A stretch of DNA of 64,000 nt from Candidatus Fermentibacter sp. (GCA_030373045.1 JAUCPW010000018.1:17078-81077); one strand, 5' to 3'. Positions 24,760 through 54,856 are shown, numbered from the stretch's first letter. Translations and numbers: made by a program. Notes: generated from the sequence alone by a model not told the origin.

Positions 24760-24874
24760 CTGCCCCCTCCAGTATCAGGCCATATATTCGAAGATCGGGC
24801 CGTCCCGCCGCATGGCAGGCATCCGGTCCGGGGGTTTATACTCATACCGGAACCCCTCAAGGAGGCTTGGCTTG

Positions 24875-25579
24875 ATGAGGCCTCTGGCCGTCGTCCCGAC
24901 CTACAACGAGATATCCAACATCAGGCGGCTCATACCCGCCATTCTCGACCTGCCCGGCTCTCCCTGCATCCTCGTCGTCGACGACAGCAGCCCGGACGGC
25001 ACGGGCGACGCAGTCCGCGAATTCGAGCACACAGGCAGGGTCCACCTCCTGACCAGACCCCAGAAGAAGGGTCTCGGGCAGGCCTATGTCGCGGGCTTCC
25101 GCTGGGCGCTCGAGCACGGGTACGATCCCATCATCCAGATGGACGCCGACTTCTCCCACGACCCCGGCAAGGTGCCCGAACTGACGGCGGCCCTGGCCGA
25201 CCACGACTTCGCCCTGGGCTCGCGGTACTGCAGCGGCGTGAACGTGGTCAACTGGCCGCTGTCCAGGCTCCTGCTGTCCTATTTCGCCAACGTCTACACC
25301 CGTCTGATAACCGGCCTGCCCGTCACCGACGCCACCGGCGGATTCAAGGCGTTCAGGAGGGAAGCCCTCGAGAAGCTCGACCTCGACGGCATCCGCTCGG
25401 ACGGCTACTCGTTCCAGATCGAGGTGACTTACAAGCTGGCGAAGGCGGGATGCAGCGTGGTCGAAGTACCCATCATCTTCGTCGACCGCCACGCGGGCAC
25501 CTCCAAGATGACCAGGAGCATCGTCTGGGAGGCGGTCTGGATGGTCTGGCGCCTGAAGTTCCCCTGGCTCTCCCGATGA
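24875..25579 (+). CDS. polyprenol-phosphate glycosyltransferase, GT2 (Ppm1/DPM1/GtrB-like)
   Basis: ATG 24875 with GGAGG 9 nt upstream (track's 24812 start is an extension); MRPLAVVPTYNE…ILVVDDSSPDGTGD…QMDADFSHDP… GT2 DxD pattern of polyprenyl-P-sugar synthases. Confidence 0.7.
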   Translation: MRPLAVVPTYNEISNIRRLIPAILDLPGSPCILVVDDSSPDGTGDAVREFEHTGRVHLLTRPQKKGLGQAYVAGFRWALEHGYDPIIQMDADFSHDPGKVPELTAALADHDFALGSRYCSGVNVVNWPLSRLLLSYFANVYTRLITGLPVTDATGGFKAFRREALEKLDLDGIRSDGYSFQIEVTYKLAKAGCSVVEVPIIFVDRHAGTSKMTRSIVWEAVWMVWRLKFPWLSR

Positions 25580-27813: not shown

Positions 27814-28790
27814 TCAGGGCAAGACAGCTCGAGTTCGGTGACAGGGAGAGGTGGGCGGAATTCGTCAGGCTCTCCTCCAACGGCACCCTCTTCCACCTCC
27901 CGGAATTCTTCGACTACCACCCGCCCGGGCGGTTCGACAACCATCACGTGGTCCTCGAGGACGAGGGCGACGGCTCGTTCGTCGCGATCGCCACCGGGGC
28001 CCTGTCCACCGTGAACGGCGAGCGCTGGTTCAGATCGTATCCCGGGGCGTCGTGGGGCGGCCTGGTACTCAACGACGGCGCCGGGCTGGAGACGGTCGAG
28101 GAGTGCGTCGACGCACTGATCGCCCATGCGAGGGGCCTGGGCGCGGCCGGGATGGAGATGACCTCCCCGCCCCTCGTCTATCACAGGCGCCCGTCGAACT
28201 ACCTCGACTTCGCCCTGGTCAGGCGCGGCTTCACGTACCGGAAGAGGGAGCTCACCGCGGTCATCGACCTCGGCAGGATGGGCGACGAGGTGGAGCTGGC
28301 GTTCCGCGACGCCGCCAGGAGGGGAGCCTCCCGGGCCAGGAGGATGGGCATCGAGGTCTTCGAGGAGCCTGACTTCTCCGCCTTCTACCCGGTGCTCGAG
28401 ACGAACCTCCAGGAGCGCCACGGGGTGAGGCCGACGCACACCATCGAGGAGCTCGAGAGGCTGAGAGACCTCCTGGGCCCCGGCATGATCACGCAGTTCG
28501 TGGCGAGGGGCGAGCAGGGCGTCCTGGCCGGGATGGTGATGTTCAGGTGCAACCCCAGGGTCACCCTGGCCTTCTACATCTCGCACGACGCGCGATTCCA
28601 GGCCCTGCGCCCGGTCAACCTGGTGTACCAGGAGGTGATCAGGTGGGCGAGGGACTCGGGCTACAGGCACCTCGACCTCGGCACATTCACCCTCGACATG
28701 CAGGTGAACCGCGGGCTCTGCCGCTTCAAGGAGTCGTTCAGCGCCAGGGGCCATTTCAGGGACACCTTCACGGGCAGGATAGACGGATGA
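27810..28790 (+). CDS. FemAB-family (GNAT-fold) aminoacyl/acyl transferase
   Basis: ATGA-coupled; 326 aa with two-lobed GNAT-like pattern (…LFHLPEFFDYH…; …VLAGMVMFRCNPRVTLAFYISHD…) as in FemAB/Acetyltransf_6-type proteins. Confidence 0.5.
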   Translation: MIRARQLEFGDRERWAEFVRLSSNGTLFHLPEFFDYHPPGRFDNHHVVLEDEGDGSFVAIATGALSTVNGERWFRSYPGASWGGLVLNDGAGLETVEECVDALIAHARGLGAAGMEMTSPPLVYHRRPSNYLDFALVRRGFTYRKRELTAVIDLGRMGDEVELAFRDAARRGASRARRMGIEVFEEPDFSAFYPVLETNLQERHGVRPTHTIEELERLRDLLGPGMITQFVARGEQGVLAGMVMFRCNPRVTLAFYISHDARFQALRPVNLVYQEVIRWARDSGYRHLDLGTFTLDMQVNRGLCRFKESFSARGHFRDTFTGRIDG

Positions 28791-28800
28791 CCGGAGGGGC

Positions 28801-30060
28801 ATGATCCCTCCCGCCTCCCGGTCGCTGCTGATATGGATAGCGCTCACGGGGCTCGTGTTCGGGGGCAGGCTCTGCACTACCGACGTCCTCGCCCAGCTCC
28901 AGGTCGCGCAGTCGTTCACGGGGGCGAGGCCCTTCCTCACCGCCTCCGACGGCTGGACGGTCGAAGGCGTCGACGGGCGGAGCTACGTCCCCCACGGGAT
29001 CGGATACTCCGTCCTCCTGCTGCCTGCCGCCCTGGCGGGCCTCGCCGCCGGGGAGGCAGTGGCCAGGATCTCGACGGCTCTGACGTGTGCAGCCCTTTCC
29101 GCCTGTCTGTTCGCGGTATGGAGGTCGCTGTGCGTGTCCGTGAACGGAGCCCCGCCTCCGGCATGGAAGGCCCTCGCCGTGATGACCGGCGGCATGGCGC
29201 TCGTATATGCCCGGCTTCCCTTCGACGTCACCGCCGCAGCGCTCCTGTGCACGGCGTCGCTCTGTGCGGCTTCATCCGGAAGGGACCGTGCCGCCGGCTT
29301 CCTGATCGGGGCCGCGCTGCTGGTGCGGCTCGACAGCGCGGTGTTCCTCCCTTCGCTCGTGTACGGGTGGAGGCGGGGCGCGAGGCTCGTCCCGGGCGTC
29401 GCATGCGCCCTCGCGCTGATCGCGGCGGCGAACCTGTACCGGTTCGGATCGATTCTTTCGGACGGGCACTCCCAGGACCCGGCCATGGCCCTGGAACCCG
29501 GGCTGGCCGGGCTCGCGGGCCTTCTCGCCAGCCCGGGCAAGGGGCTCGTCTGGTTCGCTCCGGTCGTGCTCCCCGCGGCATCGCGCCACAGGGGGTGGAG
29601 GCTGGCCGCCCCGCTCGCATTCAGCCTCGTCCTCCATTCCATGCTGCACGACTGGACGGGCGGTACGGGATGGGGCCCGAGGTTCCTGTTCCCGGCCCTG
29701 CCGGCGTTCCTCGTCCCGCTTGCGGCTCCGCGCCGGGAGGGGGGCCTCTTCGGGCTGACGGCGGCCTGGGGCGTCATCCTGACAGTCGCCGCCGTCTGGT
29801 CCAATCCATCGGTGATCGAGAGATCCCTCGGAGCCGACGCCTTCGAGGACCCGACGAGGCAGGCCGTGATCTGGCAGCCGTCGAGATCGCCCCTGCTCCA
29901 CTCGGTCTCGTCGATCGGCTCGGGCACCCCGGACCTGTTCTGCCTCGGGGTGCTGGCAGAGTCGCGCACCGCCGGCACGGCCGCCTGCATCATGCAGGGC
30001 GCATGGGTCCTCGGCGCCCTGGCCCTGGCCGGGGCGCGCCGCAGGGGAGGCCCTGGATGA
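28801..30060 (+). CDS. polytopic membrane protein (candidate Wzy-type polymerase or GT-C glycosyltransferase)
   Basis: 419 aa, ~10 hydrophobic segments, no soluble-domain motifs recognised. Confidence 0.4.
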   Translation: MIPPASRSLLIWIALTGLVFGGRLCTTDVLAQLQVAQSFTGARPFLTASDGWTVEGVDGRSYVPHGIGYSVLLLPAALAGLAAGEAVARISTALTCAALSACLFAVWRSLCVSVNGAPPPAWKALAVMTGGMALVYARLPFDVTAAALLCTASLCAASSGRDRAAGFLIGAALLVRLDSAVFLPSLVYGWRRGARLVPGVACALALIAAANLYRFGSILSDGHSQDPAMALEPGLAGLAGLLASPGKGLVWFAPVVLPAASRHRGWRLAAPLAFSLVLHSMLHDWTGGTGWGPRFLFPALPAFLVPLAAPRREGGLFGLTAAWGVILTVAAVWSNPSVIERSLGADAFEDPTRQAVIWQPSRSPLLHSVSSIGSGTPDLFCLGVLAESRTAGTAACIMQGAWVLGALALAGARRRGGPG

Positions 30061-31136
30061 GAATCCTCCACGTCTCTCCCCAGAACTACACCGGGGTGCT
30101 CGCGCTGTATCCGAAGGGGCATCGCGCCCTCGGCCACGAGAGCCGCCTCGTCACGTTCTTCAGGGCGGGCAACAGGTACGAGGAGGACATCTGCCTCGAG
30201 CTGCCCTTCGTGGGCCCCATGGAGTGGCTCTGGAAGGTGAAGAGGCTGGTGGGCGCCGGGAGCATGAGGGTGCCCTTCACCGGAACCAGTGACAGGATCA
30301 CCTGGACGCCGGGCCTGCTCGAAAGGCTCCTGCTCTCGCTCCGGAACGCCGTCTGGACCCCCCGGATAGACAGGGCGCGGAGGCGCTGGTCCCTCGACGA
30401 CTTCGACATCTACCACTACGAGGGAGGCATGAGCTTCTACAGGGACGGCAGGGACGTCACGCGCCTGAAGGCCGCCGGGAAGAGGATCGTGTCGAACTAC
30501 CACGGTCTCGATCTGAGGATGAGGGGGGCGATCAGGCCGGTCTGGGACGCCACCGACGTCCACGTCACGTGCGAGTTCGACCTCTTCAGGAGATATGACG
30601 AGCTGGAGTACATGTTCCTGCCGTTCGACCCCTCGCTCATGCCCCCGCGGGGGCCCGACGGAGGGACCGTGAGGATCTGCCATGCCCCCCGCATACGCGA
30701 GGTGAAGGGGACCGCGACGGTCATCGAGGCGGTCGAGCGTCTCTCCCGCCGGATGCCCGTGGAGCTGGTGCTGATCGAGGGCCTGCCGCACGCCAGGGCG
30801 CTCGCCCTCAAGGCTTCCTGCCACATATCGATAGACCAGATCGCGAGCGGAGAGATGGGTTACGGGGTGAACTCGCTGGAGAGCCTCTCGATGGGGATCC
30901 CCACGGTCACCAACCTGTCGGAGGAGTACAGGGACTTCATACCCGACCACCCGTTCGTCCTGGCGACCCCCGATACCCTCGGAGCGGTCCTCGGGGAGCT
31001 CGTCCTCGATCCCGGCATGAGGTCGAGATATGGTGCCGCCGGCCCGCCCTGGATCGATGCGCGGCACCACTGGCTGAAGGTGGCCCGCGACATTCACGCC
31101 CTCTACCGCAGGATGGGATGGGAGAGCGATGGCTGA
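30057..31136 (+). CDS. glycosyltransferase family 1 (GT-B)
   Basis: ATG 30057 overlapping upstream stop (ATGA); C-terminal …SLSMGIPTVTNLSEE… GT-B sugar-donor binding half. Confidence 0.6.
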   Translation: MRILHVSPQNYTGVLALYPKGHRALGHESRLVTFFRAGNRYEEDICLELPFVGPMEWLWKVKRLVGAGSMRVPFTGTSDRITWTPGLLERLLLSLRNAVWTPRIDRARRRWSLDDFDIYHYEGGMSFYRDGRDVTRLKAAGKRIVSNYHGLDLRMRGAIRPVWDATDVHVTCEFDLFRRYDELEYMFLPFDPSLMPPRGPDGGTVRICHAPRIREVKGTATVIEAVERLSRRMPVELVLIEGLPHARALALKASCHISIDQIASGEMGYGVNSLESLSMGIPTVTNLSEEYRDFIPDHPFVLATPDTLGAVLGELVLDPGMRSRYGAAGPPWIDARHHWLKVARDIHALYRRMGWESDG

Positions 31137-32514
31137 CGGGCTCCGCAGGGAGACGCTGCTGTACGGGCTCTCGACGATCGTGAGCGGCCTCGTGATGCTC
31201 GCTTTCCTGCCCTTCATGTCGGAATGGCTCGATCCGGCGGAGGCGGGCGAGTCGGGCGTCCTCAGGATCACCGCCGAGGTCTTCGCCGGCATCGCGGTGC
31301 TCGGGCTGCCCGTGGGCATCGTCAGGCTCTGGAGCCGGGATGGTGTTTCGAAGCGGGCGGTGGTGATCCGCGCCGCCTCAGGCACCGTCGCGGCGGCGGC
31401 GATCCTGGGTGCGGCCGCATTCCTGCTGTCGCCGTGGCTCAGGTCGGTGCTCAGCATATCGACGCCTTCGGGCCTCCTCCACGCCTGCCTGCTGGGTACC
31501 GGGGCCGCCCTGGTGCAGGTCGCACTCACCTTCCACAGGGCGGACGGCAGGGCGGGGAGCTATTTCTGGGTTCAGGCCGCGCGCGGGCTCCTCTCGCTGG
31601 CCCTGCTGCCCCTCCTCCTTCTCGCGGGGGCCGGAGGGGTCAACTCGTTCCTGGCCGCGAGGTGGGTACCGGCGATGCTGGCGGCCGCGACCGCCATCCT
31701 GGTCGCCCTGCATTTCGCAGGCCCCTCTCCGGGGAGCGCGAAGGGCCTCCTCCGCTACAGCCTGCCCCTGGTGCCCGCGGGGCTGGCGATGCTCGTACTC
31801 TCGTCCGCGGACATGATGATGCTCAGGAGCATGGCCCCCGATCTCCTCGAGAGCGGCTACTACGAATGGTCGTCTTCGGCCTGCATGGCCCTGACGCCGC
31901 TGACCATAGGATTCGGGATGGCCTGGCACAGGAGGGTCTTCGGAGCCGCCGGCCAGCCGGGAGGGCTCGCCAGGCTGGGCAGGCAGGCGCTCGCCTTCAT
32001 CGTCGTGCTCGAGGCCGCCGCCCTGCTGCTGGCCCTGTCCTCGCGCGAGCTCGTGGAGCTGGTCGGAGGCCCGGACTACTCTGGTGCGGCCCGGGTGCTC
32101 CCCATTCTCGCCGGATCGGCCGCCCTGTACGGGGTGTTCATCGTGGCGCAGACCGGCCCTCTGCTCTCGGGCAGGACCTGGCAGGTCTCGATGGCCACGG
32201 TCATAGGCGCATTCGGCAACATCGTCTTCAACTACAGGCTGATACCGCTCTACGGCGCTTCGGGCGCCGCACTGGCCACCCTGGGCACCAATCTCTTCAT
32301 GGCCGCGAGCCTCTTCTGGACTGGCCGCGCATCGTTCCCCGCGAACGCTCCGCTGATCGCGCTCGTCATGGCCGTCCCGGCCGCGATGGGCCCCGTCTCG
32401 ACGCTCTCCCTCCCGCTCAGGGCGACGATCGCAGTCGCGTGGACAGCCGGCTCGGCGCTCCTGTGCCGCGCCCTGCTCCGGGAGGACGCCCGGGAGGAGG
32501 GCGGGGATGCCTGA
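31129..32514 (+). CDS. wzx: Wzx-like oligosaccharide flippase (MOP superfamily)
   Basis: 461 aa, ~12-14 TM, polysaccharide-biosynthesis-protein pattern. Confidence 0.55.
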   Translation: MADGLRRETLLYGLSTIVSGLVMLAFLPFMSEWLDPAEAGESGVLRITAEVFAGIAVLGLPVGIVRLWSRDGVSKRAVVIRAASGTVAAAAILGAAAFLLSPWLRSVLSISTPSGLLHACLLGTGAALVQVALTFHRADGRAGSYFWVQAARGLLSLALLPLLLLAGAGGVNSFLAARWVPAMLAAATAILVALHFAGPSPGSAKGLLRYSLPLVPAGLAMLVLSSADMMMLRSMAPDLLESGYYEWSSSACMALTPLTIGFGMAWHRRVFGAAGQPGGLARLGRQALAFIVVLEAAALLLALSSRELVELVGGPDYSGAARVLPILAGSAALYGVFIVAQTGPLLSGRTWQVSMATVIGAFGNIVFNYRLIPLYGASGAALATLGTNLFMAASLFWTGRASFPANAPLIALVMAVPAAMGPVSTLSLPLRATIAVAWTAGSALLCRALLREDAREEGGDA

Positions 32515-33454
32515 TCAGACGCCAGCAGTATCGGTGCAGGTCCCGGTCAGGAATCCGGGGGCCGCCTTCGCGGCCTTTCTCGGCTCGCTGTCCGTGCAGG
32601 GAGCGGGCGGGACGGAATACGAACTGATCGTGGTCGACGACGGCAGCGACGAACCCGTGGGCGAACGCTTCGACCTGCGCCCGGAGGGCTGCACGAGGAT
32701 GGAACTCGTCAGGCTCCAGGGGCGCGGCAACAGGCCCCGGGCGAGGAACGCGGCCCTCGAGGCCTCGAAGGCGCCGGTGTCGTTCTTCACCGACGCTGAT
32801 CTGAGGCTGGCTCCGGGCGTCCTGGCGGGACACGCCGCCTTCCACGGATCCCGCGGAGGCAGGGCCGTGCTTCGCGGCCTGCGGATCAACGCCTGGTCGG
32901 TCTCCGCCACCCGCTGGCAGAAGTGGTTCGACACGAGGGCGGGCGGAGCCGGAGGCACTCTCTCCGCCATGCCCTGGAGGCACTTCGTAACCGGGAACGC
33001 ATCGGTGCCGAGGGATCTGGCCGTGGAGGCGGGGCTCTTCGACGAGATGATAACGGGCTACGGGGGCGAGGACACCGAGTTCGCATACCGGCTCCACCTC
33101 GCCGGGGCCTCGTTCTTCCGCGACCCGTCCCTGAGGGCGGACCATCTCGACGACGTGTCGGTGCGCAGGCATTCCGCGAAGATGGAGGAGTACGGTTCTA
33201 CAGGCCTGGCGTACACCCTCTCGAAGCACCCCGGGCTCGTCGGGCTGCTGGGAACCGCCTGGGTCCCGGAGCACGCGCGGGGTCCGGCCGGACGCCTGAG
33301 GGCCGCTCTGGTGAAGGCCGCCGTCTCCGACCCCGTCTACCGTTCGATCCTGCGCTTGATGGAGCTCGTGGGCCGTCCGGGCCTCCTGTTCACATATCTA
33401 TCGGTCGGAGCATGTCTTCGCGGCTACACCCGGAGGAGCCATGACGGAACCTGA
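32507..33454 (+). CDS. glycosyltransferase family 2
   Basis: …YELIVVDDGSDEP… and …GYGGEDTEFAYRL… GT2 motifs. Confidence 0.6.
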   Translation: MPDQTPAVSVQVPVRNPGAAFAAFLGSLSVQGAGGTEYELIVVDDGSDEPVGERFDLRPEGCTRMELVRLQGRGNRPRARNAALEASKAPVSFFTDADLRLAPGVLAGHAAFHGSRGGRAVLRGLRINAWSVSATRWQKWFDTRAGGAGGTLSAMPWRHFVTGNASVPRDLAVEAGLFDEMITGYGGEDTEFAYRLHLAGASFFRDPSLRADHLDDVSVRRHSAKMEEYGSTGLAYTLSKHPGLVGLLGTAWVPEHARGPAGRLRAALVKAAVSDPVYRSILRLMELVGRPGLLFTYLSVGACLRGYTRRSHDGT

Positions 33455-34379
33455 CGCCATCGGAGCCCTGTCCGCAGCCTTCCCCGGCCGCATCCGCACG
33501 GCCCACCTGGCCGACCTGACGACATGGCGCATCGGAGGTGAAGCTTCGGTCATGGAGGCCGACTCGCCGGGGATGCTCGAGGAGGTCACCGGAACTGCGA
33601 GGGATCTGGGCGTCGGCATCTTCGTCCTGGGCCGGGGCTCCAACATCCTGGCCTCCGACTCCGGTTGCGACGGGCTCGTCATCAGGCTCTCCGGTGCATT
33701 CCGCCAGGTCCTGTGGCGGAGGGAAGGCGACCTGTGGAGGGTCGAGGCGGGCGCATCCGCCATGCTCCCGGGTCTTGCCGGCGCTTCGTGCATGAAGGGC
33801 GCGGCAGGGCTGGAGTTCGCCGCGGGCATACCGGGCACCGTCGGCGGGGCTGTCTTCATGAACGCCGGGGCCTACGGGGCCAGCATCTCCGAACTGGTGT
33901 CCTCCGTCCGGTTCCTGTCGGAGAAGGGATGGGCGACGGCGGGCAGGGAGGGATGCGGGTTCGGGTACAGGACGAGCGCCTTCCAGTCGTCCTCCGGAAT
34001 CGTGGCTTCGGTCGTCCTCGAACTCCGCGCCGGGGACGCGGCCGCCCTCATGGAGTCCGCATCGGGCATCCTCCGGAAGCGGCGGGAGTCGTTCCCCCTC
34101 GAGCTGCCCAATGCAGGCAGCGTGTTCAGGAGGACGGAGGGGGCTCCTCCCCCCGGCAGGCTCATCGAGGAGGCCGGGCTCAAGGGCAGGAGGGCGGGGG
34201 GAGCCATGATATCCGACCTGCACGCCAACTTCATCGTGAACACGGGAGGTGCCTCATCGGGCGACGTCACCGACCTCGTGGGGGATGCCAGGAGGGCGGT
34301 CTACGAGACGTCGGGGGTCTCCCTGGTCGAGGAGATCAGGTATCTCGGCCGCTTCGGCGGACAGACCGAGGGGCGTTAG
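33441..34379 (+). CDS. murB: UDP-N-acetylenolpyruvoylglucosamine reductase (MurB) homologue
   Basis: FAD-binding …GIFVLGRGSNILASD…, …AGIPGTVGGAVFMNAGAYG…, C-terminal …GGAMISDLHANFIVNTGGASSGDV… MurB pattern. Confidence 0.7.
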   Translation: MTEPDAIGALSAAFPGRIRTAHLADLTTWRIGGEASVMEADSPGMLEEVTGTARDLGVGIFVLGRGSNILASDSGCDGLVIRLSGAFRQVLWRREGDLWRVEAGASAMLPGLAGASCMKGAAGLEFAAGIPGTVGGAVFMNAGAYGASISELVSSVRFLSEKGWATAGREGCGFGYRTSAFQSSSGIVASVVLELRAGDAAALMESASGILRKRRESFPLELPNAGSVFRRTEGAPPPGRLIEEAGLKGRRAGGAMISDLHANFIVNTGGASSGDVTDLVGDARRAVYETSGVSLVEEIRYLGRFGGQTEGR

Positions 34380-34381
34380 CC

Positions 34382-35332
34382 ATGGCAAGGACACTGGCAG
34401 GTGGAATGGTGCTCGATGACGGCCCCATCCTCGTCACGGGCGCCGCGGGTTTCGTCGGGCGCCACCTCATGTATCAGCTCGAGATGGGCGCGGGCGACTT
34501 CGCCACCGACCTCGGCGACTCCTTCGAGGCGCCGCCGGGAGTCGCCCGGCTCTCGTGGAGGCTGCCCGGAGGTCCTGTTCCGGATGCGCTCGGCGGAGGC
34601 GCGAGGTACATCGTCCACCTGGCCGGAGTCTCCTCCGTCGCCCATTCGGGGATGGACGCAGCGGGCATCTACACGGTCAACACCGCCGGGACGGCCGCCA
34701 TGCTCGAATGGGCCGTCTCGTCGTCCCCCGGCGCGAGGATCCTCTTCGTGAGCTCGTCGGAAGTCTACGGCTCGTCGTCCGGCCTGCTGACCGAGTCCTC
34801 TCCCGTCGCGCCCAGGAACGCATACGGCGGCAGCAAGGCCGCCGCCGAGGAAGCGGTCAGGCAGTTCGCCAGGTCCTCCGGCATGGACATCGTGATCGCC
34901 CGACCCTTCCCCCACTTCGGTCCGTGGCAGGATCCCCGGTTCGCCCTCCCCTCCTTCTGCCGGAGGTTACTCGAGGCCGCCAGGAGCGGGCCGCCTTCGA
35001 TCTCCGTCGGCAACCTCGCGCCCGTGAGGGATTACACCTATATAGGCGACGTCGTGGAGGCCTACTCGATCCTCCTCGCAAGAGGGAGGGCCGGGACGGT
35101 CTACAACATCGCGAGCGGGGAGGGCCGCACGATGGCCTCGATCCTGGAAATCCTGATCGGGATGTCGGGATCGGCCGTCGAAGCGGTACCCGATCCCTCC
35201 CTGCTGAGGGAATCCGACGTTTCCGTCCAGGTCGGCAGCGCCTCCCGCATGGAGGCACTCGGCTGGAGGAGGAGATACACTCTCGAGGAGGGGCTGCGCC
35301 TCCTCCTCGGCTGGTGGGGGGAGAGGACATGA
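34382..35332 (+). CDS. NAD-dependent epimerase/dehydratase (GDP-4-keto-6-deoxymannose reductase Rmd-like)
   Basis: ATG 34382 (track's 33665 start is an extension through murB); ILVTGAAGFVGRHL…SSSEVYG…AYGGSKAAAE. Confidence 0.55.
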   Translation: MARTLAGGMVLDDGPILVTGAAGFVGRHLMYQLEMGAGDFATDLGDSFEAPPGVARLSWRLPGGPVPDALGGGARYIVHLAGVSSVAHSGMDAAGIYTVNTAGTAAMLEWAVSSSPGARILFVSSSEVYGSSSGLLTESSPVAPRNAYGGSKAAAEEAVRQFARSSGMDIVIARPFPHFGPWQDPRFALPSFCRRLLEAARSGPPSISVGNLAPVRDYTYIGDVVEAYSILLARGRAGTVYNIASGEGRTMASILEILIGMSGSAVEAVPDPSLLRESDVSVQVGSASRMEALGWRRRYTLEEGLRLLLGWWGERT

Positions 35333-37491
35333 ACCTCCTGGTGATGGCTGCCGTCTCTGCGGTTTCTCCTTCTCAGTGGACCCACTACGCCCATTTCGGC
35401 AGCGTGGCGGACATCGTCTCCTCGGGAGGCTCGGTGGTCTGCGCCTCCACCGGCGGAGTGGCCTTCGGCACGATAGGTGAAGCCGGACTCACCGCCTGGG
35501 ATTCCGTGTGGACCTATCCCGGCGAGCTGTCCCATTCCAACTGCAGATGCCTGGCGGCCGAACCGGACGGATCGATCTGGGTCGGGACCTGGGGCGGAGG
35601 GATAGATCTCTTCAGGCCGGGCTCGGGCTTCACCCACTTCGGCCAGCTCGAGGGGCTTCCCATCTCCCAGCAGATCAACGCGATACTGCCCGATACATCC
35701 GTCTTCGCCGCCACCACCCAGGGGCTCGCGATAATGGAGTACGCGTACTTCCAGACCTGGACCGGGCTCAGCACGGGGGGCGGGCTCACGTCCGACATCG
35801 TGAAGTGCCTGGCTCCCTCCGACTCGGGCCTGTTCGTCGGCACCGAGGCCGGAATCTCCCATCTCGGGGCCGGGCTGTACCCCGGAAGCCCCTCCTCCTG
35901 GACCATGTACCCGGAGATGGACGGGAAGAAGCTCCGTGAGTTCGCATGGTGCTCGGACACCCTCTGGGCCGCCGCTGACGACGGGCTGTACTTCCTGCCC
36001 CCGGGAAGCGGGACATGGGCCGAGGATGCAACCTTCCCGCTCGACGAAGCCCTGTGCCTGGCCTCCGACGGCACCGACCTGGCTGCGGGCTCCGGCTGGC
36101 TCGCGAACGTCAGGGAGGGCGGCGTCTGGACATCCCGTACCGTCAGGGGCGGGCAGGACGTGAAGGCCATCGCATTCGGCCCGGGCGGGCTCGTCTGCGC
36201 CGGGGTCTCCAACGAGCTGGACGCCGACGATTCAGGGGCGGGCATAGGCGTCCGCTGGAACGATTTCTACGTTCTGTCCGCGCCCGCCGGGATCCCTTCC
36301 TGCACGATCCATTCCGTGACGCTCGCGGACGACGGGACCTGCTGGGTGACGACCGAGAACATGGGAGCGGGGGTTCTGATGGACGGCTCGTGGGTCTCCT
36401 ACCTGTCGGTCCTCCCGGGCGAGCACCAGGTATTCACGAGCGAGAGCCAGCCCGGGGGATCGGTGTTCATCTCCCCCTACGCCTACGGCGTGGCATGGCT
36501 CGACAATTCCGGCACCCCGGAGACCTCCGACGACACGGTCATCGACCTGAACATCGGGAACAGCGGCCTGCTGAGCGACAGGATCCGCGCGATCGACAGG
36601 GCCCCGACCGGAGAGACCTGGTTCGGACAGACCCAGGTCGCCCCGGGAGAGGCGGCCGGGGTCACCCGCCTCGACTGGACCCCCGGCGAGACGTCGGGTG
36701 CCTCCTGGGTCTCCTGGACGGCTTCCGACGGGCTGCCTGCCGGCGCCGTCCAGGCCGTCTTCGGCCTGCCGGGAGGGAGCGCCTGGGTCGGAACAGCCAC
36801 CGGGCTGGCCCTCGCAGGCCCGGCCGTCGGCCAGGTCTCCGCCGTCATGGATGCCTCGGACGGGTTGCCGGACGACGAGGTCACCGCCCTCGCCCTGGCC
36901 AGGACGGGTCGGCTGTTCGTGGGCACGGCATTCGGCCTGGGCGTGGTCGAACCGGGCGCCCTCACGGCCGGAGAGGTCGAAGGGGTGGACGGGGCGGTCA
37001 CCGCCCTCGTGGAGGACAACACGGGATCCGTCTGGGCGGCTACCGACGAGGCTCTGTACAGGATACTGCCCGGAGGCGGGCTGGAGGAGTACAACACCCT
37101 CAACTGCCCCCTGCTGTCGACCGTGATGCACGACCTGGCCTGCGACAGGGACTCCGGCCTCCTCTACATCGGCACCGATCACGGCATGTGGCGGGTCGAT
37201 CTCGGCGAGGGGCTCGGCGGCGACGGGGGCGGGGCTGTCATCTACCCCAACCCGTTCATGCCGGGCGAGGGCGAAGTCCTGGGCGTGGCGGGGCTTCCGG
37301 ACGTCCCCACGACCATCCGGGTGTTTGACCTGACCGGCGCTCTTGTTTATGAGTTCGCGTCCCCCGACAGGGACGGCATCGCCTGGGACGGCACGGATTC
37401 GGGCGGCGAGCCCGCATCGTCGGGCGTCTATCTCGTCCAGGTCGTCCAGGACGGCTACGATGCCCTGACCGGGCTGGCCCTGGTCCGATAG
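35329..37491 (+). CDS. secreted beta-propeller repeat protein with FlgD-Ig / T9SS-type CTD (paralogue of 25576..27813)
   Basis: ATG 35329 overlapping upstream stop (ATGA); propeller-like repeats; C-terminal VIYPNPFMPGEGEVLGVAGLPDVPTTIRVFDLTGALVYEF…IAWDGTDSGGEPASSGVYLVQV… CTD. Confidence 0.6.
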   Translation: MNLLVMAAVSAVSPSQWTHYAHFGSVADIVSSGGSVVCASTGGVAFGTIGEAGLTAWDSVWTYPGELSHSNCRCLAAEPDGSIWVGTWGGGIDLFRPGSGFTHFGQLEGLPISQQINAILPDTSVFAATTQGLAIMEYAYFQTWTGLSTGGGLTSDIVKCLAPSDSGLFVGTEAGISHLGAGLYPGSPSSWTMYPEMDGKKLREFAWCSDTLWAAADDGLYFLPPGSGTWAEDATFPLDEALCLASDGTDLAAGSGWLANVREGGVWTSRTVRGGQDVKAIAFGPGGLVCAGVSNELDADDSGAGIGVRWNDFYVLSAPAGIPSCTIHSVTLADDGTCWVTTENMGAGVLMDGSWVSYLSVLPGEHQVFTSESQPGGSVFISPYAYGVAWLDNSGTPETSDDTVIDLNIGNSGLLSDRIRAIDRAPTGETWFGQTQVAPGEAAGVTRLDWTPGETSGASWVSWTASDGLPAGAVQAVFGLPGGSAWVGTATGLALAGPAVGQVSAVMDASDGLPDDEVTALALARTGRLFVGTAFGLGVVEPGALTAGEVEGVDGAVTALVEDNTGSVWAATDEALYRILPGGGLEEYNTLNCPLLSTVMHDLACDRDSGLLYIGTDHGMWRVDLGEGLGGDGGGAVIYPNPFMPGEGEVLGVAGLPDVPTTIRVFDLTGALVYEFASPDRDGIAWDGTDSGGEPASSGVYLVQVVQDGYDALTGLALVR

Positions 37492-37499
37492 GAGGCGCG

Positions 37500-38249
37500 A
37501 TGAAGGGAGTCATCCTCGCCGGAGGCCTGGGTACGAGGCTCAGACCCCTCACCAACATCACGAACAAGCATCTGCTCCCCCTGTACGACAAGCCCATGAT
37601 CTTCTACCCGATCAACACTCTCGTCGGTGCCGGGATCACCGAAGTGATGATCGTGACGGGCGGCAACAGCGCGGGAGACTTCCTCAGGCTGCTGGGCGAC
37701 GGCTCCCAGTTCGGTCTCCGCATCCTCAACTACGCCTACCAGGTCCGCGAGGGGGGGATAGCCGAGGCCATCGGGCTGACCAGCGCCTTCGTCGGCGGCG
37801 ACAGGTTCGTGGTCATCCTCGGGGACAACATCCTCGAAGGCTCCATAAGGCCTTATGTCGAGGCCTTCGAGCGTCAGGCCGGAGGGGCGCGCATCCTGCT
37901 GAAGGAGGTGCCCAATCCCAGGGACTACGGAGTCGCCGAACTCGACGGGAGCAGGGTGGTCTCGATCCAGGAGAAGCCGGCCGAACCGCGGAGCAGCCAC
38001 GCCGTGATAGGCGTCTACATGTACGACGGCTTCGCGTTCGACTTCATCGGGAGGCTCAAGCCCTCGGCCCGGGGCGAGCTGGAGGTCACCGACCTCAACA
38101 ATGCCTATCTCGAAAGAGGGCTGCTCCAGGCCGATGTCCTCGAGGGCTGGTGGAGCGATGCCGGGTCGAGCATCGACGGCTACCTCGAGGCCAACGTCAG
38201 GGTGGCCGAACTCTCGCGCAGATCGGCGTGCGGAGGGACGGCGGGATGA
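37500..38249 (+). CDS. sugar-1-phosphate nucleotidyltransferase (RmlA-like, short form)
   Basis: MKGVILAGGLGTRLRPLTNITNKHLLPL…. Confidence 0.7.
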   Translation: MKGVILAGGLGTRLRPLTNITNKHLLPLYDKPMIFYPINTLVGAGITEVMIVTGGNSAGDFLRLLGDGSQFGLRILNYAYQVREGGIAEAIGLTSAFVGGDRFVVILGDNILEGSIRPYVEAFERQAGGARILLKEVPNPRDYGVAELDGSRVVSIQEKPAEPRSSHAVIGVYMYDGFAFDFIGRLKPSARGELEVTDLNNAYLERGLLQADVLEGWWSDAGSSIDGYLEANVRVAELSRRSACGGTAG

Positions 38250-39280
38250 GGATCCTGGTGACGGGAGGCGCCGGCTTCATAGGCAGCAACTTCGTGAGGC
38301 ACCTGGCCTCCGAGCGCCGGGGATGGTCCATCCGCGTCCTGGACAAGCTGACCTATGCGGGCAGGCGCGAGAACCTCGCCGGCCTGGAATCCCCCGGGCC
38401 CGTCGAATTCATGCAGGGTGACATCTGCGATCCCGGCGATGCCCGGAAGGCTGTCGAGGGGTGCTCGGCCGTCGTGAACTTCGCCGCGGAGACCCACGTC
38501 GACCGATCCATCGACGACCCGTCGGCATTCGTGAGAACGGACGTGGAGGGGGTCAGGACCCTGCTCGAAGCCTTCAGGAGTTCCGGAGGCGACCTCTTCC
38601 TGCAGATCTCCACCGACGAGGTGTACGGCAGCGTCGAGGAGGGGAGGTCCTCGGAGGACGACCCGCTCGCGCCCAGGAGCCCCTACGCCGCGTCCAAGGC
38701 TGGCGGGGAGCTTCTCGCGATGAGCTTCTTCCATACCTGGGGGGTCCCGGTCGTGGTGACCCGGGCCTCCAACAACTACGGACCCCGCCAGTATCCCGAG
38801 AAGCTGATCCCCCTGTTCGTGACCAACTGCCTCGAGGGGCTGGAACTGCCTGTCTACGGAGACGGTCTGAACCGGAGGGACTGGCTGCATGTGGAGGATC
38901 ACTGCAGGGCCCTCCTGGCCGTTCTCGAGAGGGGGACCCCCGGCAGGGTCTACAACATCGGGGCCGGCGAGGAGCACACGAACCTCGAAGTCACCCGGGC
39001 CGTGCTCCGGCTGACCGGTACGGATCCCTCCAGGGTGAGGATGATAGAGGACAGGCCCGGGCACGACAGGAGATACGCGCTGGACATCTCCCGGATCGCA
39101 GGCGAACTGGGCTGGTCCCCCGCCGTCGGATTCGAGGAGGGATTGTCGGCCACGGTCGACTGGTACCGCGGGAACCGGGCCTGGTGGGAGGAGATCAAGA
39201 GCGGACGGTTCCGCGAGTACTACCTGTCGATGTACGGGCGGAGGCTCGCTTCGAGCCGCGGCATGGGAGGCGGGTCTTGA
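38246..39280 (+). CDS. rmlB: dTDP-glucose 4,6-dehydratase
   Basis: ATGA-coupled; [20 protein letters not shown]…VLDKLTYAG…[10 protein letters not shown]…. Confidence 0.75.
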
Positions 39281-40212
39281 GGGTTCTCGTGACCGGGGGG
39301 GCCGGCTTCATCGGAAGCCATCTCTGCGACAGGCTGGTGGCCGACGGGCACGACGTCGTGGCTCTGGACAACCTGATCACGGGCAGCACGGACAACATAG
39401 CCCACCTGGCCGGGAACCCGCGCTTCAGGTTCATCCACCACGACGTCACCGAATACATCTTCGTGAGCGGTCCGCTCGACTTCGTCTTCCACCTCGCCTC
39501 TCCGGCGAGCCCCGTGGACTACCTGACTTATCCCATTCAGACCCTCAAGGTAGGCGCCCTGGGCACCCACAAGGCGCTCGGGCTCGCACTCGAGAAGGGG
39601 GCCGGATTCCTGCTCGCCTCCACGAGCGAGGTCTACGGCGATCCGCTCGTGCATCCGCAGTCCGAGGACTACTGGGGCAACGTCAACCCGGTGGGGCCGA
39701 GGGGTGTGTACGACGAGGCCAAGAGGTTCGCCGAAGCTCTGGCCTTCGCGTACATGCGCTACCACGGGCTCGGGGTCAGGATCGCGCGCATCTTCAACAC
39801 CTACGGCCCCAGGATGAGGGCCGACGACGGCCGGGTGGTCCCGGCCTTCATCTGCCAGGCCCTGCGCGGCGAGGATCTGACGGTCTTCGGCGACGGGAGC
39901 CAGACCAGGAGCTTCTGTTACGTTTCCGACACGGTCGACGGCCTGATCAGGCTGGCCCGCGGAGGCGACCCCGGGCCGGTCAACATAGGCAACCCCGACG
40001 AGATGACCGTTCTTCGCTTCGCCGAGACCATAAGGGACATGATAAGCGGGTCGGGGAGGATCGTGTTCGAGCCCCTCCCGGTCGACGACCCCAGGATCAG
40101 GAGACCAGACATATCGCGGGCGGAATCATCCCTCGGGTGGACGCCGCGGGTAGGATTCGACGAGGGCGTCTCCGGTACCATTTCGTACTTCAGGGAGAAG
40201 CTATGCCTCTGA
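39277..40212 (+). CDS. uxs: UDP-glucuronate decarboxylase (UDP-xylose synthase)
   Basis: TTG 39277 with GGAGG 6 nt upstream, overlapping rmlB stop (TTGA); (M)[19 protein letters not shown]…LDNLITGS…IFNTYGPRM…. Confidence 0.7.
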
Positions 40213-41372
40213 ACACGGCCCTCCTCCTCGCCGCCACGGCGACCCTGTCGCTCCCGGCCCAGACGTCGTCGACGGCTGCGGTCCCGTCCCATGCCTTCGA
40301 GCCTGCCGACCGGGATGCGTACATCCTCGGCCCCGGAGACGTGCTCGACGTCATCGTGGAGGGAGGCGCCACCCCGGCCGTCCTGGCCTCGGGCCTGTTC
40401 CCGCAGTCGGTCTGCACGGTTTCCTCCGACGGCGTGCTCGCCGTATCGGGCATCGGGCAGGTCTCCGTCGAGGGCCTGACCATCGCGGAGGCCGAGATCG
40501 AGCTCGCGAGGCTCACCCGCAGCTACTACCCGGGCATGCGGATCGGCATCTCCCTCTCGACGCCCCGCCTCGTGAGGGTGAGGGCGTCAGGTGCGGTCTC
40601 GACACCCGGCATCTATGCCATGTACGCTCTCCAGAGCGTCTCCGACCTCCTCGTCGAGGCCGGCGCCACCGCGGCCTGCTCCAGGACCGGGTGGGTGTTC
40701 TCCGACGGCGACTCGCTCCATTTCGACCTCAGAACCGATCCCGTGACCCACATGCCCGTGTCGGATCCCCTCCTCGCGGGGGGCACGACGGTGATGTTCT
40801 CCACGTGCGAGCATCCCGCCTATGTCGTCAGACCCGCGCAGGAGGCGGTCGAGGGTGTTCCGGCGGTGTCGATGATCCAGGCATGGGAGGTGGAGCGCCC
40901 CCTCGAACTCGCGCTGTTCCTCGAGATGACGGGCGGAGCGGGGGCGGACTTCGACCCCGGGCGTTCGGGGCTGCTGCACGGCGGAACCCTGGCGCCGATC
41001 TGGGGCGTCGACGGGCTGGCGGACCTCTTCGTGGAAGCGGGCGACACCCTGTTCCTCGCCGGAGCGGAGACGAAGGTGACTGTCGCCGGGGCGGTGGCGG
41101 CCCCGGGATTGCATGACTGGATCGCAGGCCTCGCCGCGAGCGACTATGTCGGCCTTTCCGGGGGTGCCCTCCCGGATGCGGCCCTTGGCGGAATGAGGAT
41201 AGTGAGGGACGGAGAGATCATCGCCTCGGGAAGGGATGCCTCCGGTATCGAGCCGTCCCCTGGCGACATGGTCGAAGTCCCGTTCAAATGGGCGACCAGG
41301 AGCATGAGCATGTTCGTGATACTGGGTTCGGTGGTAAGCGCCGCCGCCATAATCATCAACCTCAGCCAATGA
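40203..41372 (+). CDS. wza: Wza-like polysaccharide export protein
   Basis: signal peptide; [13 protein letters not shown] (poly_export motif); SLBB-like repeats; C-terminal TM. Confidence 0.65.
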
Positions 41373-42598
41373 GCACCGAAGACACCAGCCTCGGCGGACT
41401 GGCCGGCGAAGCCCTCCTGCTGATCGCGAGGAGCGTCAGGAAGCTGGCCGTCTTCTGCTTCACGGTGGCCGTCTGCACCGCCGTCTACACCCTGGTGGTC
41501 AAGCCGAGGTTCGAGGCCACGGCCATCGCCTCCGTCCCCGGAGCCTCCTCCTCGGGCGGGCTGTCCGCCCTGACCGGGCTCATTCCCGGCGCTCTGGGAG
41601 GCTCCCTCGGCGACCTCGCCTCGAGCCTCCCGATGGAGATCGGGACTCCGTCGGGCACGGACATCACGGTTGTCGAGGCGGTCCTCTCCTCCCGCCAGGT
41701 GATGGAACGGATCGTGATAAGTTATGACCTGATGCGGAGATGGCACTGCAGGTCGATGGACGACACGCTGAAGAAGCTCTCGAAGAGAGTCAGCGCGACC
41801 CTCACCACCGACGGGCTCTTCGTGGTGACGGCCTCCGGAGAGACCCGCGAGGAGGCTGCCTCCATGGCCTCGGACATCATCACCTTCGCCGACGAGGAAC
41901 TGGCCGTGATGGTGACGAGCCGCGCCCGCAGGGCCAGGATGGAGGCCGAGCACCTGCTGGCGGCCGCGCGCGATTCTCTCGAAGCAGCCCAGGAGAGGCT
42001 CGAGGCGTTCAGGGCCGCGACCGGCCTGATACTCCCGGAGGAACAGGGCGCCGCAATGGTCCAGGCCCTGGGCCAGGTCGAGGCGGAACTCCTTCTGGCG
42101 AGATCTGAGCTGTCCGGGGCTGCCGCCACCCTGTCGCCGGGGAGCCCGGCGGCCAGGGAGCTCGCCGCGCGCGTCGGCTCCCTCGAGAGCGACCTCGCTC
42201 TCAGGCTGGGGGCGGGCGACAGCCTGAGCGTGTTCCCCGCCATGGACAGCCTCCCGGCCGGGATGCGCCAGTACGGGAACCTCTACCTTGACGTGGAGAT
42301 GAAGACCACTCTGGTGCTGATGCTGACTCAGCAGCTCGAGACCCTGAGGATCGAGGAAGCCCGCGAGAGCCCCACCCTCGAGATCGTGCAGCCGCCGGTG
42401 GCGCCCAAGCAGAGGGTCTTCCCGAAACGCACCCTCATGGTCCTCGAGTTCACGGCCATCGCCTTCATCCTCGGCTGCCTCTGGCTGACGGTCGTGGCAT
42501 ACCTTCGCAGGCTCTCGAGAGACCCTGCCAAGGCCGAGTTCTGGAGGCAGTTCTCCGGGGCGATACTCGAGCAGATCCCCGCCCGCCGGAGCCGCTGA
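41369..42598 (+). CDS. wzz: polysaccharide co-polymerase / chain-length determinant (Wzz/PCP family, no kinase domain)
   Basis: ATGA-coupled; N-terminal TM, long coiled-coil periplasmic region, C-terminal TM (LMVLEFTAIAFILGCLWLTVVAYL). Confidence 0.55.
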   Translation: MSTEDTSLGGLAGEALLLIARSVRKLAVFCFTVAVCTAVYTLVVKPRFEATAIASVPGASSSGGLSALTGLIPGALGGSLGDLASSLPMEIGTPSGTDITVVEAVLSSRQVMERIVISYDLMRRWHCRSMDDTLKKLSKRVSATLTTDGLFVVTASGETREEAASMASDIITFADEELAVMVTSRARRARMEAEHLLAAARDSLEAAQERLEAFRAATGLILPEEQGAAMVQALGQVEAELLLARSELSGAAATLSPGSPAARELAARVGSLESDLALRLGAGDSLSVFPAMDSLPAGMRQYGNLYLDVEMKTTLVLMLTQQLETLRIEEARESPTLEIVQPPVAPKQRVFPKRTLMVLEFTAIAFILGCLWLTVVAYLRRLSRDPAKAEFWRQFSGAILEQIPARRSR

Positions 42599-42606
42599 GA
42601 CCCGAG

Positions 42607-43908
42607 GTGATCCAGGAGATCAGGGCGTCCTGGGGGAGGCTCGTGTCCATCGGCCTCCCGGTCGTGTTGAGCCAGGGGACGAACGCCGTCTGGGGCGTGG
42701 TGACGCTCCTCGTCGCGAGGGTCCTCCCCGAGCCGCAGTATGCCGCGTTCTCCCTGGCCAAGACCGTCGAGATCCTGGCCGTCACGATCGGCGGCGGCTT
42801 CGTCATGCAGGCCCTCCTGAAGTATGCCTCCGAAGGCTCCGGCAGGCGTGCCGAGACCGTGAACTCGGCGGCGGCCCTCGCGCTCGCCCTGACGGTGGCG
42901 GGAGCAGGTCTGCTCCTCGCGTGCGGAGGCCTGATACAGTCCTTCTACAGCGAGATCCCGCTCGCCGGCCTGCCCGTGGTCCTCTCGCTCATGGTCCTCT
43001 CGGAGGGCGTCTGCGCCATCCCCCGGAACAACCTCCTCGCCGTGCAGAAGACCCGGCAGGTGATGTGGGGGGACATCACCGGTTTCGCCGTGAGGATCTC
43101 GATAGTCCTCTTCCTGGCGTTCTCTGGCAGGCTCTCCTCCCCGCATCCCATCTTCCTGGCCCAGACCCTCTCGAATGCGGCATGCCTGCTGGTCCTCGTC
43201 CGGGGCGGGGGCAGGTTCTTCGAGAGGGGAGCCCGGGTCGCGCGGGAGAGCCTGACCAGGGTGTGGAGGTTCTCGGTCTACACCCTGGGGACGTCGCTCG
43301 CCGCCTACATCTACTCCTGGACCGACATACTGATGCTCGGGCGGATGGCTCCCGGTGACGTCGCGACATACGGTGTCGCCCGGAGCCTCACCAGTTTCGT
43401 GGCGAGCCTCAACCAGGCCGCGAACATCGTGCTGCTTCCGCTCGCCTCGAGGATGCACACGACCGGACGGACCCCCGGGGTGGCCGCGAGGACCTGGCAG
43501 GGGATCATCCTGGTGGAGGCCGTCCAGCTCCCCTTCATAGCCATTTTCGCGATCTTCCCGAGGCAGATCCTCGATCTCCTGTTCGAGGGCAGGTACAGCG
43601 AAGGCTGGGCGGTCGTGACGGTGCTCGCCCTGCTGAATCTGGTCAAGCCTGTCGGGAGCCTCTTCTCCTCCACCGCATGCGGGCTGGGCAGGCCGGAGTA
43701 CTCCCTACGCTCGGTGCTGCTCACCGCGCTTCTCAACGTCGGCCTCAACGCGCTGCTGATACCCAGGTTCGGAGGGCTGGGGGCCGCCTATGCGACCGTG
43801 GTCTCGATGCTGGCGGGCGGGCTGGCGATCTACCTCGCGGTCACCTCGTATCTGAAGAGGCACACGGACGGATCCGGAGAGGCTGCGGCGGGTTCCGGCG
43901 CGGACTGA
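42607..43908 (+). CDS. second Wzx/MOP-family polysaccharide flippase-like membrane protein
   Basis: GTG start; 433 aa, ~12 TM. Confidence 0.5.
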   Translation: MIQEIRASWGRLVSIGLPVVLSQGTNAVWGVVTLLVARVLPEPQYAAFSLAKTVEILAVTIGGGFVMQALLKYASEGSGRRAETVNSAAALALALTVAGAGLLLACGGLIQSFYSEIPLAGLPVVLSLMVLSEGVCAIPRNNLLAVQKTRQVMWGDITGFAVRISIVLFLAFSGRLSSPHPIFLAQTLSNAACLLVLVRGGGRFFERGARVARESLTRVWRFSVYTLGTSLAAYIYSWTDILMLGRMAPGDVATYGVARSLTSFVASLNQAANIVLLPLASRMHTTGRTPGVAARTWQGIILVEAVQLPFIAIFAIFPRQILDLLFEGRYSEGWAVVTVLALLNLVKPVGSLFSSTACGLGRPEYSLRSVLLTALLNVGLNALLIPRFGGLGAAYATVVSMLAGGLAIYLAVTSYLKRHTDGSGEAAAGSGAD

Positions 43909-54810: not shown

Positions 54811-54856
54811 CGGTCCGGGGGCGCGCGCCCCGGACAGGCCGTCCGGAGTTGGACAA

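Follow-up and report, generated by a model that had tools for sequence, protein, structure and literature searches.

Divergent PorZ-like proteins encoded within a conserved polysaccharide operon of Candidatus Fermentibacteria

In Porphyromonas gingivalis, PorZ binds the polysaccharide of anionic lipopolysaccharide (A-LPS), and the loaded protein interacts with PorU, the sortase of the T9SS (type IX secretion system) (PMC8545088). PorU exchanges the C-terminal domain (CTD) of cargo proteins for the glycan, and PorZ retains its own CTD (PMC8545088, PMC5121618). The nucleophile used for anchoring is the amino group of a serine or glycine on a linking sugar (PMC7468200). VimA, a protein with a match to the FemAB family TIGR03019, attaches this Ser or Gly (PMC7468200, Veith et al. 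2020). Here, we describe a protein, prop2, encoded at 35329..37491 of a 64,000-nucleotide stretch of DNA from Candidatus Fermentibacter sp. (GCA_030373045.1, JAUCPW010000018.1:17078-81077; the whole stretch is referred to as the window), together with a paralogue, prop1, encoded 7.5 kb upstream. Judged by sequence comparison and predicted structure, both are divergent PorZ homologues. The PorZ family itself is known; what is new here is that duplicated, divergent PorZ-like proteins are co-encoded with the pathway for their presumed ligand. To our knowledge, the glycan-shuttle role of PorZ rests on biochemistry in P. gingivalis alone, where porZ is unlinked to glycan genes, and we know of no adjacency of vimA and porZ in Porphyromonas. 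Our literature search yielded nothing on a T9SS (type IX secretion) in Fermentibacteria; nor did we find a paper in which PorZ genes lie within glycan operons or next to vimA-like genes.

The likeness to PorZ (PG1604/PG93; structure 5M11; NCBIfam NF052228, "T9SS anionic LPS delivery protein PorZ") extends to size (720-745 vs ~760-776 aa) and to a signal peptide, tandem Reg_prop-type propellers, and a beta-sandwich CTD with the motifs YPNP, GxY, and K(L/I)AxVR. PorU-type sortase genes are also present in the same genome region, here as two copies. However, identity to PorZ is only ~17-21%. The curated equivalog cut-off was not reached and PF21544 (PorZ_N_b_propeller) was not matched; for this reason, we name the proteins PorZ-like rather than PorZ equivalogs. 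Unlike PorZ, they occur in Fermentibacteria, outside Bacteroidota, and as two ancient paralogues. Nor is their ligand by default the phosphorylated branched mannan of A-LPS, because the sugar genes of the operon point to dTDP- and UDP-derived sugars. In contrast to the canonical Ignavibacteria PorZ that we examined, the Fermentibacter genes lie inside a conserved polysaccharide operon, beside a FemAB/VimA-like gene.

Gene structure and PorZ homology of the two propeller proteins

The reading frame of prop2 is a real gene. It translates without a stop, and its codon-position GC (0.65/0.54/0.87) is a coding-type pattern for a window with a GC content of 68% overall and 63-71% per 2-kb window. 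The in-frame stretch 5' of the start (34555..35328) has values of 0.87/0.60/0.57, which is the pattern of another reading frame. Since this extension is noncoding in the frame of prop2, 35329 is the true start. A Shine-Dalgarno-like GGAGAGG lies close 5' of the ATG, which overlaps the TGA of the preceding gene as ATGA (35329..35332), just as the initial annotation of the window had reported. Prop1 is ATGA-coupled in the same manner to a glycosyltransferase family 2 (GT2) gene. The name given earlier to the gene upstream of prop2, an Rmd-like reductase, could not be upheld: the product is a generic short-chain dehydrogenase/reductase (SDR), whose best NCBIfam match, at 123 bits, falls short of the cut-off of 365.

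Paralogy between the two proteins had been proposed, and it extends well beyond the CTD: BLASTP aligned them over their full length, with 26% identity across 760 columns (E 1e-51). A hidden Markov model (HMM) built from the propeller part of the prop2 orthologues matched only prop2 (889 bits) and prop1 (261 bits) in the window. The domain order proposed at the same time, with a signal-like N-terminus, propellers, and a CTD, is borne out as well. Pfam Reg_prop (PF07494) matches both prop2 and prop1 (E 8.1e-18 and 1.9e-16, respectively). Confident AlphaFold2 models were obtained for prop2 (44 sequences; pLDDT 91.5, pTM 0.90) and prop1 (pLDDT 86.2, pTM 0.80). In both, the fold consists of two beta-propellers and, at the C-terminus, a beta-sandwich, in a PorZ-like arrangement; the hydrophobic N-terminus that precedes them lies outside the fold (pLDDT < 50). 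The N-termini of both families (35329..35380 and 25576..25630 in the window, and those of the orthologues) are short, at ~12-17 residues, and signal-like. A basic n-region is mostly absent from them; canonical PorZ begins with MKK..., and the leaders of the PorU-like proteins are more ordinary.

The relation to PorZ is seen in structure, in sequence, and in profiles. In Foldseek searches of the PDB, P. gingivalis PorZ (5M11) was the first match for both proteins over the whole chain, with E 7.7e-29 and a TM score of 0.68 for prop2 and E 4.7e-31 and a TM score of 0.67 for prop1. It was also the best sequence match of prop2 among solved structures (E 1.5e-15), with the periplasmic domains of Bacteroides hybrid sensors next. 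In hhalign, the profile of prop2 orthologues aligned with a PorZ-family profile from the first blade to the end of the CTD (probability 100, E 9.6e-60, 673 columns); that profile was made from Ignavibacteria and Bacteroidota sequences, all of them with PF21544. The comparison with histidine-kinase sensor domains covered the propellers only (E 5.2e-40, 513 columns). In a crude neighbor-joining tree, without bootstrap, the two Fermentibacteria paralogue clades are sister groups; they fall among PorZ-like proteins and are separate from the sensors. The CTD motifs YPNP, GxY, and KLAxVR are common to prop2 and the PorZ-family proteins.

For the CTD, the initial annotation had named a T9SS/FlgD-Ig type, and the first half of this label holds. 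The CTD of prop2 just passes the model of the T9SS type A sorting domain, TIGR04183 (24.3 bits over residues 638-709, cut-off 23), but the match to Pfam FlgD_ig is sub-threshold (20.9 bits, cut-off 27), and the Pfam scan gave no match to PF18962. The CTD of prop1 has no direct match to TIGR04183 or Pfam. It is recognized by a CTD HMM made from the prop2 orthologues (58 bits) and by the CTD portion of the PorZ model NF052228.

Reg_prop propellers are also found in pairs in the Bacteroides sensors BT4663, BT3049, and BT4673 (4A2L, 3V9F, 3OTT), which bind glycans. The repeats themselves, and the fact that hybrid sensor kinases are the top non-orthologous sequence matches, could thus be read as signs of a periplasmic two-component sensor domain detached from its kinase. 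We consider this very improbable, and the architecture effectively refutes it. The Pfam scan of prop2 matched neither PF07495 (Y_Y_Y), which the initial annotation had suggested and which must be dropped, nor HisKA or HATPase; a receiver domain is likewise missing. No hydrophobic segment reaches the transmembrane threshold, a membrane anchor is lacking, and the T9SS CTD sits where Y_Y_Y would be. BT4663-type domains reach a TM score of only ~0.35 in Foldseek because the domain arrangement, with a different orientation of the propellers, is unlike that of prop2. A kinase gene is adjacent in 0 of the 34 loci described below. The Bacteroides sensors are periplasmic dimers, whereas prop2 is a predicted T9SS-exported surface protein.

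The propellers had further been suggested to bind or process glycans. Binding is a known property of the closest characterized relative, and this part of the suggestion stands; for processing, we found no evidence. Polymer-trimming enzymes do occur in exopolysaccharide (EPS) operons, and the GH74 xyloglucanases 2CN3 and 4LGN are among the Foldseek matches (TM score 0.54), which would fit a double-propeller hydrolase or lyase of the GH74 kind, trimming or remodeling the polysaccharide of the operon outside the cell. However, at E <= 1, neither Pfam nor NCBIfam gave a match to any glycoside hydrolase or lyase family, the repeats are of the Reg_prop and not the BNR/Asp-box type, and sequence and profile homology favor the non-enzymatic PorZ and sensor domains. 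We regard an enzymatic role as improbable, and the GH74-type reading was rejected for want of a hydrolase family match.

The polysaccharide operon and its conservation

Both genes belong to a run of 16 genes (24812..43908). Since the junctions between these genes measure only -14 to +10 nt, they form one operon (Table 1). The dTDP/UDP-sugar branch that had been noted downstream of prop2 is present, with RmlA-like, RmlB, and UXS/ArnA-like genes. There are two flippase-like genes, which may export two lipid-linked intermediates. In all loci that are long enough for judging, murB lies inside the polysaccharide operon.

Table 1. Positions of the operon genes, T9SS-related genes, and a neighboring barrel gene in the window.
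Feature	Position	Strand	Remarks
GT2 glycosyltransferase, polyprenyl-phosphate sugar synthase-like	24812..25579	+	Operon gene 1; ATGA-coupled to prop1
PorZ-like protein 1 (prop1, 745 aa)	25576..27813	+	Architecture as in prop2
FemAB-family/Acetyltransf_6 protein (TIGR03019-like, VimA-like)	27810..28790	+	ATGA-coupled to prop1
Polytopic membrane protein, candidate polymerase or GT-C-like	28801..30060	+	At least 8 hydrophobic segments; faint GT87 match in orthologue
GT4-like glycosyltransferase	30057..31136	+	Weak matches only
Wzx-like flippase	31129..32514	+	10 hydrophobic segments; Polysacc_synt match in orthologues
GT2 glycosyltransferase	32507..33454	+	Operon gene 7
MurB (UDP-N-acetylmuramate dehydrogenase)	33441..34379	+	269.8 bits, passes curated equivalog cut-off 259
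NAD-dependent epimerase/dehydratase-family SDR	34382..35332	+	ATGA-coupled to prop2; generic
PorZ-like protein 2 (prop2, 720 aa)	35329..37491	+	Propellers ~17-625, T9SS type A CTD ~637-720
RmlA-like sugar-1-phosphate nucleotidylyltransferase	37500..38249	+	230 bits, below cut-off
dTDP-glucose 4,6-dehydratase (RmlB)	38246..39280	+	418.7 bits, passes cut-off 365.1
UXS/ArnA-like SDR	39277..40212	+	Operon gene 13
Wza-like outer-membrane polysaccharide export protein	40203..41372	+	Poly_export, SLBB
Wzc/PCP-like chain-length or export protein	41369..42598	+	GNVR; BexC/CtrB/KpsE-like
Second Wzx/MATE-like flippase (MATE/MurJ-like)	42607..43908	+	Last operon gene; position not kept in all species
PorU-like T9SS sortase 1 (~1260 aa)	51028..54810	+	Peptidase_C25 and CTD; NF033707 full-length
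PorU-like T9SS sortase 2 (~1260 aa)	54794..58603	+	Peptidase_C25 and CTD; tandem paralogue
Gingipain-like protease	8126..10333	+	Propeptide_C25, Peptidase_C25, Ig-like, type A CTD
Outer-membrane barrel protein (348 aa)	23713..24759	-	Omp85-family matches only, no POTRA region

Gene order in the operon is conserved across the phylum. A protein search returned 43 clusters of full-length prop2 orthologues with 37-98% identity, and those that are named belong to Candidatus Fermentibacteria or Aegiribacteria. A profile scan of one genome per species gave 34 loci, of which the labeled ones are Fermentibacteria, Aegiribacteria, or Hyd24-12; the window itself is ~98% identical to the metagenome-assembled genome (MAG) RA.bin127. 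When the proteins of the cluster were compared with these loci by tblastn, gene order was identical wherever the contig was long enough: GT2, PorZ-like 1, FemAB-like, polytopic membrane protein, GT4-like, Wzx-like, GT2, and MurB, followed by SDR, PorZ-like 2 (prop2), RmlA-like, RmlB, UXS-like SDR, Wza, and Wzc-like. A prop2 orthologue is present in 34/34 species loci. Prop1 is absent in two species (L032, ~1590..3321, and L041, ~1642..3406), in which the GT2 gene runs directly into the FemAB-like gene; all else in the operon is intact, the prop2 orthologue included. The earlier view that two such genes in one glycan operon are not a coincidence is therefore supported by gene order conserved across 34 Fermentibacteria species. 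Because both genes lie within one conserved polysaccharide-synthesis operon, this operon probably makes the sugar that both PorZ-like proteins bind.

Of the products of the operon, Wza, Wzc, and the propeller proteins evolve fastest, with 31-55% identity in most loci compared with 60-75% for the cytoplasmic enzymes, and this divergence fits envelope exposure. In one species (L005, 17354..18853), the Wzc-like gene is directly followed by an inserted gene, whose product has Glug repeats and a T9SS CTD.

With its glycosyltransferases, flippase, polymerase-like protein, Wza-like and PCP-like proteins, and dTDP-sugar genes in one operon, the locus resembles Wzx/Wzy-dependent, Wza-Wzc (group 1-like) capsule or EPS loci. 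It differs from typical hypervariable capsule loci in that its gene order is invariant across the phylum, and from capsule and EPS loci in that murB, a FemAB-like gene, and genes for two surface proteins of the PorZ-like kind form part of it. This likeness leads to a reading in which the PorZ-like proteins are ordinary T9SS cargo, that is, surface lectins or capsule-retention proteins in the manner of Wzi. Their propellers would bind the exported polysaccharide of the operon and keep it on the cell, and their CTD would serve their own export and be cleaved, with no role for them in sortase action. Capsule or EPS loci typically have a Wza/Wzc export route, the CTD belongs to type A, which is the cargo type, the PorZ equivalog cut-off was not reached, one paralogue is dispensable in two species, and the propellers evolve fast, as in surface-exposed binding proteins. 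All of this would fit a lectin. The collinear, end-to-end homology with the PorZ family, CTD included, is stronger than that to any other group and argues for a different role, as do the two PorU sortases nearby; a simple lectin role would also leave unexplained why PorZ-like genes are repeatedly paired with a FemAB gene of the VimA-like kind. We therefore consider the lectin reading a credible minority view, with perhaps one chance in a few of being correct. The initial annotation had likewise treated both proteins as cargo, a category that is probably wrong, given that PorZ is a component of the attachment complex that uses but keeps its CTD.

T9SS components and the FemAB-like neighbor

At a distance of 13.5 kb downstream of prop2 are two PorU-like sortase genes. 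Their products align with the whole of the PorU sortase model NF033707, at scores of 358 and 364 bits, which do not reach the cut-off of 420; identity between the two is 41%. The presence of two sortases and two PorZ-like proteins suggests paired modules. The sortase genes and the FemAB-like gene, from which the locus draws its significance, had gone unnoticed in the initial annotation. A gingipain-like C25 protease near the start of the window scores 29 bits on TIGR04183 (cut-off 23) and is likely a T9SS cargo protein, and the CTD HMM recognized five CTD-bearing open reading frames (ORFs) within the window. PorZ is held at the cell surface by a barrel of the PorQ type; in the window, no gene of the PorP/SprF family was recognized. 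An outer-membrane barrel gene is divergent from the operon start, and L032 and L041 have it in the same location (35% identity). This barrel is possibly an anchor for the PorZ-like proteins. As candidates for PorQ or PorV, neither it nor a 390-aa ORF (58641..59810) is supported, since they gave only Omp85-family and TPR matches.

Other genes of the window lie further from the operon. A few kb upstream of it, 19444..20418 (+ strand) encodes 324 aa with a Y1 transposase domain of the IS200-like type; next come genes for an SppA-like peptidase (20472..22802) and for a protein resembling APH-family kinases (22799..23716). On the minus strand, 10388..16505 holds two long, slightly overlapping genes that resemble an AddAB-type helicase-nuclease pair: one encodes a UvrD-like helicase of 1038 aa, and the product of the other, of 1018 aa, has a PD-(D/E)XK nuclease domain.

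The gene that follows prop1 encodes a FemAB-like protein that matches TIGR03019 nearly over its full length with 38.5 bits, far below the cut-off of 260; its score on FemX is 22.7 bits. No Bacteroidota VimA was found among its 120 best matches in a homologue search, and the link to VimA therefore stays at the family level. In the Wbp/Vim pathway of P. gingivalis and Tannerella forsythia, too, a putative aminoacyl/acyl transferase of the FemAB family is found with glycan genes and T9SS attachment proteins (PMC7468200). Unlike that pathway, the Fermentibacteria operon is without Wbp genes and a VimE-type deacetylase.

PorZ-like genes beside glycan genes also occur in other lineages, in which several PorZ-like proteins of 730-770 aa have the same CTD and reach 76-156 bits with the PorZ model. 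Three such loci (L007, L043, and L044) have CTD-bearing PorZ-like genes within glycosyltransferase clusters. In L007 and L043, a homologue of the first GT2 of the operon precedes the PorZ-like gene (55% identity in L007). In L007 (10001..15553), the PorZ-like gene is directly followed by a TIGR03019 FemAB/Acetyltransf_6 gene, two GT4 genes, and then the mraZ/dcw cluster. The order in L044 (8001..15859), from a MAG with the unverified label Verrucomicrobiae, is PorZ-like, FemAB-like, GT4, GT4, and more, ending upstream of mraZ. The label Limisphaerales on another entry (P0157) is unverified as well. The PorZ-adjacent FemAB-like proteins score 78.8 bits (L007) and 59.1 bits (L044) on TIGR03019. 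FemAB-like homologues with 45-48% identity are also found without a PorZ-like neighbor, in Edwardsbacteria (L045, 8001..13498), where the gene adjoins Amidase_3 and an Asp/Glu racemase, and in Latescibacteria (L046, 7380..10942), where it adjoins a 366-aa protein of unrecognized family and a flippase.

A proposed glycan shuttle and its implications

Homology and operon logic, taken together, lead us to favor, by a modest degree of confidence, a role for prop2 as a surface glycan shuttle for sortase-mediated anchoring of cargo. The PorZ-like protein would be exported by Sec with its short signal peptide, would then use its C-terminal type A CTD to pass through the T9SS across the outer membrane, and would remain at the cell surface. 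There, its two beta-propellers would bind the polysaccharide made and exported by its own operon, which has the glycosyltransferases, Wzx-like flippases, polymerase-like membrane protein, Wza, and Wzc for such a task. The glycan would then be presented to one or both of the PorU-like sortases, and the sortase would cut the CTD from T9SS cargo and join the cargo to the glycan. The FemAB-like enzyme beside prop1 may supply the amino-acid nucleophile on the linking sugar, as VimA does in Porphyromonas. Glycan binding, retention at the surface, the hand-over to PorU, and the linker chemistry are what we infer; the homology, the fold, and the gene arrangement are observed.

Several findings weigh against this shuttle role. 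On the PorZ model NF052228, prop2 scores 79.7 bits and prop1 33.5 bits against a cut-off of 260, and in both proteins the match is confined to the C-terminal 150-165 residues; by comparison, an Ignavibacteria PorZ (P0075) reaches 378.6 bits, end to end. PF21544 is present in canonical PorZ-family proteins but was unmatched at E <= 1 in both of ours. A plain sequence search ranks hybrid sensor kinases above PorZ-like proteins among the non-orthologous matches, and the N-terminal signal of prop2 is short and has no basic n-region. In the window, we recognized no PorV, PorQ, or core T9SS gene. The operon has no Wbp-pathway, aminotransferase, or VimE-like deacetylase genes and therefore cannot alone make a linking sugar of the Porphyromonas type. 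The profile scan, being built on prop2 orthologues, recovers only these and is blind to another, more canonical PorZ. The canonical Ignavibacteria PorZ (L042) lies outside glycan clusters; linkage of PorZ and glycan genes is therefore not a general property of PorZ and, considering also the Edwardsbacteria and Latescibacteria FemAB-like genes that lack a PorZ-like neighbor, is lineage-restricted. Finally, the FemAB-like family is found beside peptidoglycan genes as well (Amidase_3, racemase, the dcw cluster, and MurB), in part with no PorZ-like neighbor, so a role in the cell wall is possible and the FemAB-like protein may be cell-wall related.

With MurB in the operon, these cell-wall neighbors allow a wall-related reading of the entire cluster, which would then serve peptidoglycan or a wall-linked polymer, the PorZ-like proteins acting there and not on an anchor glycan. 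MurB passes its equivalog cut-off, the Edwardsbacteria FemAB-like homologues lie beside wall genes, and the PorZ-like/FemAB-like modules of L007 and L044 are situated immediately 5' of mraZ. However, a protein with a T9SS CTD would be sent to the outer surface and hence not to peptidoglycan, Wza and Wzc indicate export of a polymer across the outer membrane, and the FemAB-like protein fits the PEP-CTERM/VimA-type family better than FemX. We judge this reading unlikely, at about one chance in a dozen.

If the glycan-shuttle role is correct, a broader picture can be drawn, which we put forward only tentatively and as less likely than not. There may be two parallel attachment modules, each made of one PorZ-like and one PorU-like protein. 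The whole anchor-glycan pathway, from sugar activation and a FemAB-made, amino-acid-bearing linking sugar to polymerization and Wza export, might be encoded with its PorZ-type shuttles in one phylum-wide operon. This arrangement might also be ancestral. Since modules of PorZ-like, FemAB-like, and glycosyltransferase genes recur outside Bacteroidota, co-encoding could be the ancestral state and the scattered arrangement of Porphyromonas a derived one.

Fermentibacteria are uncultured, and the genomic link described here, while based on inference, may be useful to those who study the T9SS. PorZ-like genes that are translationally coupled to polysaccharide and VimA-like genes provide independent genomic evidence for the link between PorZ and glycan. 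The operon is a concrete candidate for the locus of a T9SS anchor glycan outside Bacteroidota and, if this is true, would give a name to a locus that has long been unknown. Curated PorZ models miss this branch of the family, and T9SS attachment components are therefore under-annotated in candidate phyla of the Fibrobacteres-Chlorobi-Bacteroidetes (FCB) group. The natural pair of paralogues, along with two PorU-like genes, offers a handle on how attachment specificity evolves.

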